Of a DNA stretch of 40,812 nucleotides, positions 13,656 to 34,049 are shown one piece after another (position 1 is the first letter of the stretch; each line of letters starts with the position of its first letter). Where the stretch lies: contig JAPDJY010000002.1 in assembly GCA_029258835.1 (NCBI GenBank), forward strand, positions 1 to 40,812. Direction: 5' to 3'. The notes below the pieces were generated by a model. That model worked only from the letters and a program-made list of their open reading frames with translations. It did no database searches and had not been told where the DNA came from. The stretch comes from Thermoproteota archaeon. GTDB lineage: Archaea; Asgardarchaeota; Jordiarchaeia; Jordiarchaeales; Freyrarchaeaceae. The position numbers were made by a program, and so were the translations under genes.

Positions 13656-13807
13656 GGGCCCTAAGGGCAAAAGATTTACATTCACACCTTCTATTTTCTC
13701 TCCTTTCCCCGGTGTGCTTGCTTTTCTCTCCTTTGAAGGGGTGGTCGGTAGGGGGACAAGTTAATAAAAAGGGGAGTAGTAGTGGTTGTTTGGAGAGAGA
13801 GGTTGAG

Positions 13808-14569
13808 GTGAAACCCCTGATAAGGGTGGCTTACACCCTAAAGCAGACCAAGCTTGTTGTCGTGACGGATTCCCCCGAAGCCGTTAAAGTTGCAGTCAGG
13901 ACGGTTAAGGCCCACAGGGAGACTCTTGAAAGGTATGTTAAGCGTAACCCGTCCTTTCTCCGCTCGCTGGAGCCTGTTGAGGTAAGCGGCGACGCTCCGG
14001 AAGTTGTTAGGAGAATGGCTGAGGCAGGTTTAAAGGCAGGCGTTGGACCCATGGCTGCCGTCGCAGGAGCCCTGGCGGACTTGGCGGTCGAGAGGATGCT
14101 GGCTAAGACGAGGGTGGCAGTAGTCGAGAATGGGGGGGAGGTCTCGGCTAACTCTGAAAAGCCGGTTACGGTTGGGGTTCTAGCTGGGAAGTCCCCTCTT
14201 TCAGGGAGGATAGGATTCCTCCTTCCTAAGGAGGAAATGCCTGTAGGCATCGGGACAAGCTCTGGAACGACGGGGCACGCCCTTAGCTTCGGGCTAGCCG
14301 ACGCGGCTACGGTGGTGGCGGCGGATGCAGCCTTAGCGGATGCAGCGGCCACAGCTGTGGGAAACGTGGTTAGGGGGGACGACGCGGAGAGGGCCGTCCA
14401 GGCAGGGCTCGAAGTTGCAGAGAACATAGAGGGAGTACGGGGGGCACTAGTAATCATGGGCGACTACGCAGGATTGGTCGGGAAGCTTCCGAGGATGATC
14501 AGGGTGGAAGGGGACATCGGCAAATATGTTAAAGGCGTAGAGGAATACCTTCCGCCGAGAATCCTGTAA
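13808..14569 (+). CDS. UPF0280 / ApbE-like family protein
   Basis: FLRSLEP, GVGPMAAVAGALAD, VENGGE, GTSSGTTGHALSFGLADAATV, ADAAATAVGN; start uncertain (13790 or 13808). Confidence 0.9.
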   Translation: MKPLIRVAYTLKQTKLVVVTDSPEAVKVAVRTVKAHRETLERYVKRNPSFLRSLEPVEVSGDAPEVVRRMAEAGLKAGVGPMAAVAGALADLAVERMLAKTRVAVVENGGEVSANSEKPVTVGVLAGKSPLSGRIGFLLPKEEMPVGIGTSSGTTGHALSFGLADAATVVAADAALADAAATAVGNVVRGDDAERAVQAGLEVAENIEGVRGALVIMGDYAGLVGKLPRMIRVEGDIGKYVKGVEEYLPPRIL

Positions 14570-14591
14570 ACTTAAGGTTCGGGTTCATTTT

Positions 14592-15926
14592 TCATATCAG
14601 CCCTTTCTTCCTCATATCATCTATCTCTTTGAACTTTTTGGGGAGGTATTCGTCCACAACGTAGGTGAGACCGTACCTGCTGAAGGCTTGCTGCTCCGCC
14701 TTCTTTCCGAGCGCTAGGAACTTCTTAAGTTCCTTCTGCCAGAAGGGGGTCTGGTATCGTGGATCCCTTAGCAGCTCCTTACACCTTTTCACGTCAAGCT
14801 CCGTCAGCTTGTCTGTGGGAAGATTATACTTTTCTATGTCTGAAGCCCAGACCCCCATCCACACGGCGTCGGGCGTAGCCAACCCTGTGAGGTGGGCTGA
14901 CGAGGCGCTCCCACTTATTATAACCATTGCTATGTGCGCCCCCCAAGGGTCTCCGTCCGTGAAAATGTACACTGGCAGCCCCAGTTCGAAGTGCAACCTC
15001 CTTATGAAGCGCCTGGTTGACCTTGGAGCTTGCCCCGCCGTGTGGATCAGGATTGCGTTGAACTTCTCGTGAACCTCCTCCTCCACGAACCTCGTAAACA
15101 TCCCGCCTGACTCTATAGCTATCACCTTGTCGGCGCTCGTCCTGATGAACTTGGCGTTGACAAGGTGCGGCCCTATCATCACCCCGTCAGGGTTCTGATC
15201 CATGACAACCTGCTTGCCAGCGTACTTAGCGGGCGTGGTGTACTCGACGACCAGGTCCCCATAGACTGCACTCCTCTCCTCGGGGAAAACCTTGAAGTCT
15301 TCGCGTGGAACCTTCAGTACGGCTTCAACCTCCGTTATGCACGTGTCGGACTCCTGCTGATCCTTGAACTTCACCCCGAAGGCCTCACTGCTGTAGTAGA
15401 CGTCACGGAGAGTGCTGCTCTTCCCCATCTTCAACAGGTCCTTTACAAACCTCATAACCCATACTAGCTGGGTGAAGCTTCTTATCTGCCCGAGGCTCTT
15501 GGCTGTTCTAAGGATCTTTTTGTCCCCTAAAACGTACTGTCTCAGCTCGCTGTCGAACACTATGTTAGAGGTTCTCCTGCTCGGTATCTCTATGGATGGA
15601 AACTCCCCCCTCACTATTTCCTCGTAAAGCTTCCTGCCGACGAGGGTTAAGTTCTCCTCTATCTTAGCCCTCAGCTCCTGCTCCTTCTCGTACTCCCTCC
15701 TCTCCCGCTCTATAGCCCTCCTCCTTCTAGCCTCTGCCGCGGTGAGCCTCCAATAAGTTACGCCATCCTTAACCCTAGACTCCACGAGGCCCTCGCCCGC
15801 AAGCCCCTCCAGCGTCTTAGCTACCGTTTCAACACTTAAGCCCGCGTTTTTAGCTATGCTCTCAACCCTGCTCCAGTTCCTAGACATCACGGAAAGAACC
15901 TTGCCGCCTTCAGACAACCCACTCAA
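14592..15926 (-). CDS. top6A: DNA topoisomerase VI subunit A with N-terminal extension
   Basis: STLRDVYY (catalytic Tyr), IAIESGGMF, TAGQAPRSTRRF, FTDGDPWG (Toprim DxD), KKAEQQAF. Confidence 0.96.
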   Translation of the reverse strand: MSGLSEGGKVLSVMSRNWSRVESIAKNAGLSVETVAKTLEGLAGEGLVESRVKDGVTYWRLTAAEARRRRAIERERREYEKEQELRAKIEENLTLVGRKLYEEIVRGEFPSIEIPSRRTSNIVFDSELRQYVLGDKKILRTAKSLGQIRSFTQLVWVMRFVKDLLKMGKSSTLRDVYYSSEAFGVKFKDQQESDTCITEVEAVLKVPREDFKVFPEERSAVYGDLVVEYTTPAKYAGKQVVMDQNPDGVMIGPHLVNAKFIRTSADKVIAIESGGMFTRFVEEEVHEKFNAILIHTAGQAPRSTRRFIRRLHFELGLPVYIFTDGDPWGAHIAMVIISGSASSAHLTGLATPDAVWMGVWASDIEKYNLPTDKLTELDVKRCKELLRDPRYQTPFWQKELKKFLALGKKAEQQAFSRYGLTYVVDEYLPKKFKEIDDMRKKGLI

Positions 15927-30544: not shown

Positions 30545-30970
30545 TCATTTAGACTTCCTTAATTGTTTTTGAAGTTCATGCCATGGGACGAGCTGTAAGC
30601 CGAACTTCTCAAATCTCTGGTAGTGTTTAACGTTTCGGGTTGTAAACTGAACTTTTCTGGTTATTGCTATTGCAGCGTTAAACACGTCTCTGCTTGAAAG
30701 AAGCCTTCCTTCTTTTCTGAGCGCAGCCCATATTTCACTGGCTTTAAGTATTGAGGCATTGTTTAAGTGGTAGACTGCTAATATTTCTTCGAGAAGTTTC
30801 TTCTGATCCTGCACGTTTTCTCTCATGAACACCTCGCCCCTCAAGTACTCGTATAGCGTGATCTGCGTGATCCCGGCGTCGAACAACTCCACCAGCCTCA
30901 CTATGGTTCCATCCCTGAGCGCGTCTATTAACACGTCCGTGTCCAAGATCACGGTTGAACCTACTTCCAC
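30545..30970 (-). CDS. vapC: VapC PIN-domain toxin
   Basis: ILDTDVLID, ITLYEYLRG, RDVFNAAIA, TRNVKHY. Confidence 0.9.
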   Translation of the reverse strand: MEVGSTVILDTDVLIDALRDGTIVRLVELFDAGITQITLYEYLRGEVFMRENVQDQKKLLEEILAVYHLNNASILKASEIWAALRKEGRLLSSRDVFNAAIAITRKVQFTTRNVKHYQRFEKFGLQLVPWHELQKQLRKSK

Positions 30971-31185
30971 AGTTTTCTATCCTCCTCGACGCCGCCCAGT
31001 ATCACGTCTACCTCATCATCCGTAATAACATACTTTTTCACGTACTCTCTGGCTTTCTCAGCTTTAACCTTCCTGTACTCGAACGCCATTTCAAGTAGGA
31101 ACTCATCCCAAGTTTTCTCACCCTTCAACCTCTTCAGCATCCTTTTCGTTTCACGTGAAACGGTTATCGTCGTATATTCCAACAA
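30961..31185 (-). CDS. vapB: VapB-type antitoxin (RHH-like N-terminus)
   Basis: TTITVSRETKRMLKRLKGEKTWDEFL; overlaps vapC by 10 nt. Confidence 0.8.
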   Translation of the reverse strand: MLEYTTITVSRETKRMLKRLKGEKTWDEFLLEMAFEYRKVKAEKAREYVKKYVITDDEVDVILGGVEEDRKLWK

Positions 31186-31360
31186 ACCACCCCGCCATTA
31201 ATCGACCACCAGCCATCAACTAACTATAGATTCTAATTAAATTGTTAATTATAAATTTAAAATTAGATTTTTCGGCTTTCCTACGCGTAGCTGAAAGGTG
31301 CACTTTCGACGAGGCTAAACGCTTAAATGTCCTCTTCCGCCGGGACATCGAAGGCTAAAC

Positions 31361-31472
31361 CCTTCACTCCAGACCATAAAACCCTTAAGGTCTTACACGT
31401 GAAAGAGGACATATATAACAAACTTTTAGAGCTAGCCTTCACTCCAGACCATAAAACCCTTAAGGTCTTACA
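31361..31472. CRISPR. Orphan mini CRISPR-like array: 2 identical 37-bp repeats and one 38-bp spacer
   Basis: CCTTCACTCCAGACCATAAAACCCTTAAGGTCTTACA at 31361-31397 and 31436-31472, with an internal AGACC/GGTCT stem. The minus-strand end GGAGTGAAG(G) resembles ATTGAAG/ATTGAAAG repeat ends. No cas genes in window. Confidence 0.6.
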
Positions 31473-31638
31473 GCTGCTAACTTAGAATCTAAGCCTAAGC
31501 GACTGGTTGAAAGGATAAAAGAGGATTCATCCTATTCTTAAAGGGCAAAAACAGTCCTCCCTTACATAGTTTAAGCTTGTTCGCCATTTAAAGCGGCACA
31601 TTCCTCTAACAGGGGAAGGGTGCTTATCTAACGTGATC

Positions 31639-32361
31639 TTACTTACAGGTTGCTCTCTTTAGGTTTGCTATCACATCTGGCTTGTTTGTTACTATACCAT
31701 CTACCTTTAATTGCATGAGGTGCTTAGCCGTGTTTTCGTCGTCAACCGTCCACGGGAACACCAGAAGCCCTTTCGCATGGGCGCCCCTCACCATTTCTTC
31801 ATCTACAAACCTGTGTTTTGGAAAGATTATCTCGGCTTTTGCGTCGAGAGCTAGCCTTTCAGGTCTGACGGGTTGGGAGGAGAATATTACCCCGGTTCTT
31901 ATTCTCCCGTTCAAACGTTTAACGGCCGCAACCACCTTATGGTAGAATGATGAAATAACCACTCTGTCTTCGACGCCCACCTCCAAGATTTCCTCCACAA
32001 CTTTTTCTTCTACACCGGGAACTTTGACTTCGACTACTACGGTGCGCCTCCACCTTTCAGCCTCCTCCAACACTTCTCTCAGAAGAGGAATTTTCTCCCC
32101 TCCAACACTCAGCCTCATTAATTCTTCAAGTGTTTTATCAGCCACGTAGCCCCTGCCACCCGTAACCCTGTCAACCCTCTCATCGTGTATTACAACTAAG
32201 TGCCCGTCAAAGGTCACCCTTACGTCCACCTCAACCCAGTCAGCCCCCAGAGAAAAGGCTTTCCTAATACTCTTTAGAGTGTTTTCAGGCTCGTAGGCAG
32301 ACGCGCCCCTATGACCCACGACAATGAAGCGCCCCAACCCGGTTACCCCAACATGAAGCAA
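31639..32361 (-). CDS. Glycerophosphodiester phosphodiesterase
   Basis: GHRGAS..EPENTL, VEVDVR, VVIHD..VDR, VEVK, ISSF, WTVD, VDGIVTNKPD; TTG start after GGAGG. Confidence 0.93.
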   Translation of the reverse strand: MLHVGVTGLGRFIVVGHRGASAYEPENTLKSIRKAFSLGADWVEVDVRVTFDGHLVVIHDERVDRVTGGRGYVADKTLEELMRLSVGGEKIPLLREVLEEAERWRRTVVVEVKVPGVEEKVVEEILEVGVEDRVVISSFYHKVVAAVKRLNGRIRTGVIFSSQPVRPERLALDAKAEIIFPKHRFVDEEMVRGAHAKGLLVFPWTVDDENTAKHLMQLKVDGIVTNKPDVIANLKRATCK

Positions 32362-32534
32362 GTTTCCTCCGGAATAATGCTGCGAATCGCCGGTTAAGAG
32401 CGTTACGATAAGGCAGAGAGTCAACGTAGAAAAACGCCAAGAAGCATTTAGTTAAGGTGGTTAATGGTTGCAGCGCCCCCGCAGATCCTGTAATGCCGGG
32501 TGCTTCTTCCCCTTCCCGCGGCCTCCTTTAGCTC

Positions 32535-33204: not shown

Positions 33205-33696
33205 TTACAATTGGCTTGAAGTGCTGGTTGCGCGTGGTGGGTGTTCTATGTTTAGTGGGTTTCCCGGTTTTAGCACGAGTACTGCCTCTCTGAGCCGCGT
33301 GTTTTTAAGCTTGTTTCCGAGTTTTTCGTCGCATGTTGCCAGTTTAACTTTGAGCTTTTCGGCTAAAGCGATGAAGAGCGCATCGTACACGGATTCGGAT
33401 ATTTCCACCCCTATTGCTAGAGCTTCCTCGTAAATTTCCCGTGAGGAAAAGCTGACGCATACCTCATCTATGAACCTCACAGCCATCTTCAGCAACTCCT
33501 TAACTTTCCCGTAGTCCTCGCCAAAAAACTTGATCCTTTTCCACGCAACGTTCGACACCTCGGCGACGGCAAGATCTAAGGTGTAAGCGGTGCCTAAACC
33601 CAGCACGAACCTTTCAGCACTCTCCGAGCAAGGGTCGTTAAAGAATAAGGCGGCGATCACGCTTGAGTCTAGCACCGCCTCAGCGATCTCGCTCAC
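33205..33696 (-). CDS. vapC: VapC PIN-domain toxin
   Basis: VLDSSVIAALFF, LAVAEVSNVAWKR, SVYDALFIALA, LATCDEKL. Confidence 0.92.
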   Translation of the reverse strand: MSEIAEAVLDSSVIAALFFNDPCSESAERFVLGLGTAYTLDLAVAEVSNVAWKRIKFFGEDYGKVKELLKMAVRFIDEVCVSFSSREIYEEALAIGVEISESVYDALFIALAEKLKVKLATCDEKLGNKLKNTRLREAVLVLKPGNPLNIEHPPRATSTSSQL

Positions 33697-33908
33697 CGCT
33701 CCCTGTCCTCCCTTATAAGCTCGGCTGAGCTCACTATTTTGGTGCCAGCTCTCTCCCTCCTCGCCTCGGCTACCAGCATCTTAGCCTTCTCCATCCTAAC
33801 CCTCTTCTCAATAAAGCCCCTAACCTCCTCCTGCCAGTTAACCGGGATCCTCCTCATCTCCTCCTTCAACCTCTTCGGAAGACGGACACTAAACGTCTCA
33901 CTCCCCAA
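33693..33908 (-). CDS. vapB: VapB-type antitoxin (RHH)
   Basis: TFSVRLPKRLKEEM...VNWQEEVR, SSAELIREDRER; 4-nt overlap with vapC; TTG start inferred (ORF to 33944). Confidence 0.85.
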   Translation of the reverse strand: MGSETFSVRLPKRLKEEMRRIPVNWQEEVRGFIEKRVRMEKAKMLVAEARRERAGTKIVSSAELIREDRER

Positions 33909-34049
33909 CGCAACACCCCAGAAGAACAAAAAAAGTAAACTCAAATATAAACTTGACTGTAAACAGAAACGAGGACATTAGTACACGCTAGTCCACGGCT
34001 AACCTTTACTGGTAAAACTTGAGGAGAGAAAAGGCACACAAGCCGCCAC

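Follow-up and report, generated by a model that had tools for sequence, protein, structure and literature searches.

A single-spacer CRISPR-like unit upstream of vapBC in an archaeal genome, most likely one of four scars of off-target spacer integration

The short repeat-spacer-repeat unit upstream of a vapBC pair in this archaeal contig is probably the product of an off-target spacer integration by Cas1-Cas2, that is, a natural "neo-CRISPR" unit, and it is most likely one of four such scars in the genome. We draw this conclusion from the combination of a spacer-sized, apparently foreign insert, a perfect target duplication of about repeat length, sibling strains in which the site is empty, and a genome that encodes an intact adaptation module. 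A preliminary description of this DNA had seen an orphan CRISPR-like mini-array, either linked to the toxin-antitoxin pair or acting in trans. The CRISPR-like geometry turned out to be genuine and very probably derived from CRISPR machinery, but the unit is better understood as an integration accident than as a working mini-array. Throughout, the window means the whole stretch of DNA that was analysed (40,812 nucleotides). It is contig C21 of a metagenome-assembled genome (MAG) of 91 contigs and 2.72 Mb, which is 94.7% complete with 6% contamination.

Results

Geometry and setting of the unit

The unit is made of two direct copies of 37 nt, exactly identical, with 38 nt of unique sequence between them. 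Not even a single match of this kind appeared in 100 shuffles of the window, and the coordinates confirm the repeat and spacer lengths first proposed. The features are as follows.

31361-31397, no strand assigned: copy 1 of the 37-nt target (pseudo-repeat), an exact duplicate of 31436-31472; ordinary intergenic DNA, single-copy in the assemblies L012, X1, X3 and X4
31398-31435, no strand assigned: 38-nt insert ("spacer"), apparently foreign; missing from the empty alleles and unique in its own genome at 14 nt or more
31436-31472, no strand assigned: the other copy of the 37-nt target (copy 2), matching copy 1 at 100% identity
31354-31366, plus strand: flank/target junction resembling the native type I-A leader-repeat junction, 7 of 12 positions matching
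30545-31185, minus strand: vapBC pair (vapB 30961-31185, vapC 30545-30970), context only and outside the element

The unit sits within a 453-nt intergenic gap. One border is the start of vapB, on the minus strand and 176 nt from the unit, much as had been stated (about 175 bp); at the opposite border a glycerophosphodiester phosphodiesterase gene (31639-32424, minus strand) ends with its stop codon. VapB matches PF02697 weakly, and VapC matches the NCBIfam VapC/PIN models with E = 2e-8, under the model cut-offs. The minus strand carries another VapBC-like pair at a distance of 2 kb (33205-33944); its VapB scores above the cut-off to a Sulfolobus-type VapB model, and its 163-aa partner has no NCBIfam match. 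An AT-rich stretch about 90-100 nt downstream of the unit is, as read from the sequence, the likely promoter/TATA region of vapBC. On the other side, 98 nt to the right, the minus-strand BRE/TATA-like motif that had been noticed earlier is indeed present (the reverse complement of 31570-31582) and represents a putative promoter.

The internal stem claimed for the repeat exists as a hairpin, but it is weak (-5.9 kcal/mol with z -2.3 on the plus strand; z -1.0 on the minus strand). Rfam and tRNA scans of the window returned no matches. Likewise, cas1 and cas2 are absent from the window, in keeping with the earlier statement that it holds no cas genes, and all matches to these two genes fall on other contigs. 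Just left of the unit there is a short inverted repeat (ATGTCC, 10 nt, GGACAT; 31327-31349), whose left arm together with four further bases is the reverse complement of spacer positions 6-15. A variant in L030 and X2, 31328 T>C, disrupts both pairings, that of the inverted repeat and that with the spacer.

Empty and filled alleles at the window locus

The window unit is a genuine insertion/deletion polymorphism, and what is gained or lost is precisely one "repeat" together with one "spacer". When the VapB protein was looked up by exact match, two other metagenome assemblies were found. L012 has one copy of the 37-mer, and both of its flanks match the window with a single SNP, located in vapC; the window equals L012 plus exactly 75 bp, the spacer and one copy. 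Since L012 was assembled at k = 141, a stretch of 112 nt cannot collapse, and its empty allele is therefore not a collapsed repeat. We also aligned Logan contigs of four public runs (X1 to X4) to the locus; the sequencing runs listed for it included no RNA run. The contigs of X1, X3 and X4, which come from different studies of hydrothermal-vent or marine-sediment metagenomes, jump from 31360 to 31436, so that 75 nt are skipped and 37 letters fit either side. None of these three runs has a contig with the spacer, though short contigs are retained in these data sets. A contig of X2 spans the entire spacer without difference and is therefore filled. L030 is a filled form of the same locus as well, 99.45% identical to the window over 5.9 kb, and the filled form is thus found in three separate assemblies (the window, L030 and X2).

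The filled allele is carried by two haplotypes, that of the window and that of L030/X2. Within the stretch of roughly 1.1 kb spanned by L012, these two haplotypes differ from each other at six sites. The empty L012 follows the window haplotype at five of the six sites and the L030 haplotype at the sixth, the vapC SNP. A filled allele on two haplotypes and an empty one on a window-like haplotype together imply that, after the insertion, there was either a precise loss through copy-copy recombination or an exchange between strains. For the window locus itself we had no outgroup, because a search for orthologous intergenic DNA in 40 relatives gave weak coding matches only. Overall, the sibling strains L012, X1, X3 and X4 have the same vapBC pair and flanks, apart from the one SNP, without the unit. 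The linkage of the unit to vapBC is therefore accidental, and the suggested CRISPR-linked toxin-antitoxin cassette is not supported.

Searches for relatives of the repeat and sources of the insert

If the unit belonged to a CRISPR system of this archaeon, its repeat might be expected in longer arrays, as the preliminary description had proposed to check. No array of the genome, in any of the three native repeat families, contains the 37-mer. With up to 3 mismatches allowed, it occurs nowhere else in the window or in its own genome, and no exact match was found among 185,579 species genomes. When the whole 37-nt target was aligned in register with the native repeats, called types A, B and C below, the likeness was not significant.

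The insert gave a similar picture. The window spacer has no other match of at least 14 nt in its own genome, and a blastn search of phage and plasmid records found no match. Nor did the full window spacer, or the cores of the three sister spacers described below, match viral contigs; the check on host and viral targets proposed earlier thus came back empty. Among metagenome contigs, the core of the window spacer matched solely L030, which is the same locus in its filled form. The genome contains no source for any of the four inserts, and exact and near-exact searches found no protospacer or PAM for any of them; the protospacer searches needed matches of that quality. Exact-protein look-ups were without result for VapC, for the HTH and 344-aa proteins at the C37 site (longest starts), for the ThiS-like protein at the C15 site and for the 324-aa form.

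According to the preliminary description, a repeat without any bona fide array, together with a lack of processed RNA, would make the unit a simple local duplication. The repeat is indeed absent from every real array of the genome. The unit is nevertheless not a simple local duplication, because no nearby sequence could have served as the source of its 38-nt insert.

Three further loci with the same dimensions

Three more two-copy loci of matching size, on contigs C15, C37 and C88, came to light when the genome was scanned by k-mers.

C15:18557-18668 (locus L014): duplication of 38 nt and insert of 36 nt, period 74
C37:5430-5540 (locus L015): duplication of 37 nt and insert of 37 nt, period 74
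C88:883-991 (locus L016): duplication of 37 nt and insert of 35 nt, period 72, in frame in a gene

The four "repeats" are mutually unrelated, and so are the four inserts, which have no terminal repeats. Globally, about 20 non-tandem exact duplications of at least 28 nt with a period of at most 1 kb exist outside the arrays, and four of them fall in the cell with a duplication of 37-38 nt and an insert of 35-38 nt. No diverged, older copies of the same geometry were found in the genome. Loci of similar period on C4, C53, C46 and C83 were considered as further insertions and rejected, being repetitive coding sequence.

Each of the three sister loci has counterparts without the insert. At the C15 site, five other assemblies are single-copy and lack the insert, including that of a more diverged strain with extra SNPs and indels. 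The insertion at C15 is therefore the derived state, given that the diverged strain also has a single copy. Upstream of this site, the diverged strain (L023, L026) has a 14-nt tandem duplication and small indels, which serve as strain markers. Five empty and two filled assemblies were obtained for the C37 site. At C88, the unit amounts to 72 nt in frame and adds 24 codons to a conserved membrane-protein gene; all seven homologues, ranging from 93% to about 50% identity and several of them labelled Freyarchaeota or Jordarchaeales, are without the 24 residues. This membrane-protein gene also seems frameshifted around position 1240-1263 of L016, with the part that matches the N-terminal region of the homologues in another frame (ORF 1239-1460). 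It may be a pseudogene or reflect a contig error.

The native CRISPR-Cas machinery

We then have to ask which machinery of the genome fits these dimensions. Type A arrays (36-nt repeat, more than 200 spacers) lie on C16 and C2, type B arrays (37-nt repeat) on C48, C49 and C59, and a type C array (37-nt repeat) on C90. The spacers of type A measure 35-42 nt with a mode of 38 (n = 209), so that native periods are centred on 74-75; those of type C measure 37-43 nt. The 38-nt insert of the window falls within this native spacer range. The ectopic periods are 72, 74, 74 and 75, and by the empirical length distributions types A and C account for them far better than type B does.

Contig C16 holds a complete type I-A module (cas6, cas3'', cas3', cas5a, cas7/csa2, cas4, cas2, cas1), followed by an A/C-rich leader and a type A array. 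Its cas1 is the only intact cas1 in the assembly, and the cas2 and cas4 beside it are also intact. Beside the type B array of C59 there are an intact cas2 and, in the preceding ORF, only the C-terminal third of Cas1 (L022, 8374-9180). The cas2 beside the type B array of C48 has no recognisable cas1 (L033, 1447-1746). Ring-nuclease/Csx14-like genes occur near these extra cas2 genes of C59 and C48.

Several further observations concern the native arrays. In the C16 region 36000-52000 (L017), about 1.35 kb before the type A array (13660-15012) consists almost purely of A and C on the plus strand. This strand-skewed stretch covers the leader and a 301-aa minus-strand ORF of unknown family (13667-14572). 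A solitary type B repeat with 3 mismatches stands at C44:8832-8868, with a T-rich leader-like flank and no surrounding array. The spacer at the end of C16 (58769-58782) and that at the end of C2 (about 163534-163605) start with the same 10 letters. The assembly may therefore have split what is a single type A array with more than 200 spacers.

The target sites were also compared with the native type A leader-repeat junction. In one orientation, three sites out of four (window, C15 and C88) reached a junction score of 7/12. In the window, the six bases spanning the junction, ACC/CTT, are the native ones, provided that the cut lies 1 nt inside the 37-mer. Compared with random genome sites, this likeness had a single-site P of 0.06 and a summed-score P of about 0.02, in a test that was run after the likeness had been seen and is therefore suggestive only. 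Following a lead from PMC9456107, flank hairpins were considered as an attractant of Cas1 and rejected: they were not enriched, and the native leader has none.

One feature of the fit requires an explanation. The duplications measure 37-38 nt, as against the 36 nt of the type A repeat beside the intact cas1. A 36-nt stagger would need a chance extra match at all four sites, which is unlikely (our rough estimate is P of about 0.02-0.04). The difference would therefore suggest either that the ruler of the enzyme gives 37 at non-canonical sites or that a system with 37-nt repeats acted. The latter may have been type C, found on C90, or else type B at a time when its cas1 on C59 had not yet decayed.

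A model for the integration

The most likely enzyme would be the type I-A Cas1-Cas2(-Cas4) module on C16. In the model that we favour, the host Cas1-Cas2 would have captured about 38 nt of foreign DNA and inserted it at an ordinary intergenic site and not at the leader end of an array. Two transesterifications on opposite strands, about 36-37 bp apart, would have joined the fragment to the target. The first attack was probably drawn by a chance likeness of the flank and target to the native leader-repeat junction, and the second would have been placed by the enzyme's ruler. Gap repair of the staggered ends would then have duplicated the intervening 37 bp, giving the order target-spacer-target. 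Such a unit could be removed again through recombination between its two copies.

As for its effect, the unit is most likely a neutral scar, because it lies about 90-100 nt upstream of the probable TATA region of vapBC and is missing in sibling strains. Its 37-mer is unlike any native repeat and should therefore be a poor candidate for Cas6 processing, so that processing into a crRNA is not expected.

Alternative explanations

Two alternatives take the unit as a genuine array. In one of them, the unit would be a working one-spacer array: transcription would run from the right flank toward vapBC, a host Cas6 would process the transcript, and Cascade or a type III complex would use the resulting RNA to regulate vapBC or to counter another element. 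The repeat-spacer-repeat geometry is correct for such a function, the TATA/BRE-like motif stands to the right on the minus strand, type I-A effectors are encoded in the genome, and the filled allele persists on two haplotypes. There is also the 10-nt inverted match between the spacer and 31327-31336, 60 nt away. However, this is the best local match of the spacer, it is broken in the other filled strain (L030) by T>C at 31328, and it lies upstream of the vapBC promoter region; a CreTA-type regulation, as once suggested, is thus not borne out. The spacer has no other target in the genome, the repeat is unlike the native ones and occurs in no array, identical vapBC pairs do without the unit, and the unit is away from cas genes, unlike CreTA. 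Furthermore, the sister events hit unrelated places with different "repeats", one of them in coding sequence, which fits an accident better than a design and also speaks against an array acting in trans. We consider a working array very unlikely on these grounds. The other alternative, which we regard as highly improbable, holds that the two-copy state is ancestral: the unit would be the remnant of a longer genuine array of a lost or foreign CRISPR-Cas system, and the one-copy form the last step of its decay. Deletion between CRISPR repeats is a well-known process, and the window locus, with no outgroup, is empty on the window haplotype and filled on a more distant one, so that at least one loss or recombination must have occurred. 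Nevertheless, the repeat is found nowhere else, and its copies are 100% identical, unlike those of a decaying array. At the sister loci the single copy is clearly older, as seen in the diverged strains at C15 and, at C88, in homologues with as little as about 50% identity, the "repeat" there being part of a coding sequence. It is also implausible that four different arrays were each cut down to one spacer with perfect repeats.

An origin outside CRISPR is unlikely as well. Here an unknown mobile element, a recombinase or templated repair synthesis would leave a duplication of about 37 bp and an insert of 35-38 bp. No protospacer or PAM ties the inserts to adaptation, and the duplications are 37-38 nt long and not 36. 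TnpB/IS605 OrfB-type genes (with a Cas12f1-like TNB domain) lie about 0.2-0.9 kb from two of the four sites, C37 and C88 (L015, 2517-3705; L016, 1789-2563), but the listed stretches around the window and C15 sites contain no TnpB-like ORF. A duplication of this length around such a short insert is not known from any transposon: that of casposons measures about 14-15 bp, and IS200/IS605 elements produce no duplication. Moreover, the four inserts are unrelated and without terminal repeats, and the dimensions are those of the genome's own repeats and spacers. Finally, it is extremely unlikely that the assembly misleads us, whether by having duplicated sequence falsely in the window or by having collapsed it in the "empty" contigs. 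It is true that the MAG has 91 contigs and 6% contamination, and that assembly at k = 31 turns a 37-nt repeat into a graph loop, as the split contigs of X2 illustrate. By contrast, the filled form comes from three separate assemblies, the k = 141 assembly of L012 leaves no room for a collapse of 112 nt, and X1, X3 and X4 are without any spacer contig, although short contigs were kept. Off-target integration by Cas1-Cas2 therefore remains the explanation that we favour.

Discussion

Off-target integration is known mainly from over-expressed E. coli Cas1-Cas2 and from in vitro work, and the evidence from nature is thin. Here we describe what are probably four independent events in one uncultivated, probably Asgard, archaeon of hydrothermal sediments, with empty alleles or insert-free homologues for each. 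Natural cases with both alleles in hand, and with four in one genome, are rare. They offer a natural estimate of how error-prone adaptation is, including one hit inside a gene, and their real target sites would show which rules of sequence and spacing (the ruler) a type I-A integrase follows. They also call for caution in annotation: one-spacer "orphan arrays" beside interesting genes may be integration scars and not regulators.

A bolder version of the favoured reading can be conceived. A lax integrase might repeatedly make single-spacer units with new "repeats" that persist as polymorphisms, some of them being transcribed, growing or coming into use. The window unit, present on two haplotypes and with a promoter-like motif beside it, would be a candidate for such use. 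We hold this version to be improbable; if true, it would be the long-sought natural route for the birth of new repeat families and arrays.

Two known kinds of small CRISPR unit invite comparison. CreTA is a CRISPR-regulated toxin-antitoxin system in which CreA, a crRNA-like RNA with a partial spacer, represses creT; CreA has host-like repeats, lies beside the cas operon and has a spacer that pairs with the toxin promoter. The window shares with it a tiny repeat-spacer-repeat unit outside the main array, here adjoining a toxin-antitoxin pair. On the other hand, the window unit has no host-like repeat, no adjacent cas operon and no pairing with a toxin promoter, and its neighbour is an ordinary protein VapBC pair that is present without the unit in sibling strains. 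The orphan mini-arrays of viruses and plasmids also have one or two spacers and no adjacent cas genes. Their repeats match a host array, so that host Cas proteins process them, whereas the repeat here matches none and belongs to intergenic DNA of the chromosome, at a site for which an empty allele exists.

An archaeal precedent comes from Pyrococcus furiosus (PMC6698737). The Cas1-Cas2 of this species is reported to accept non-CRISPR sites in vitro when they have junction and border features in common with the repeat. The common points are an archaeal integrase that accepts non-CRISPR sites and a second cut that is set by spacing. That assay used a plasmid in vitro and a 30-bp repeat, whereas we are dealing with putative in vivo products and a spacing of 36/37 bp; the internal A-rich motif that is important there has no evident counterpart in the targets here.

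The closest likeness is to the neo-CRISPR loci of E. coli (Nivala, Shipman & Church 2018, Nat Microbiol 3:310), the work to which both the phenomenon and its name go back. According to papers that cite it, off-target integration in E. coli spawns neo-CRISPR arrays, and there is "circumstantial evidence" for it in two other species (bioRxiv 10.1101/148544); the off-target events were found by deep genome sequencing (PMC7054753). Both those loci and ours combine a spacer-sized insert, a duplication of a non-CRISPR site with about the length of a repeat and an adaptation module in the genome, and in both the target junction somewhat resembles the leader-repeat junction. The E. coli work, as the citing papers describe it, concerned type I-E with over-expressed Cas1-Cas2, whereas the present case concerns natural events in an uncultivated archaeon and probably type I-A. 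The duplication here exceeds by 1 nt the repeat of the array that adjoins the sole intact cas1, and filled and empty alleles can be followed across metagenomes, with four loci in a single genome.
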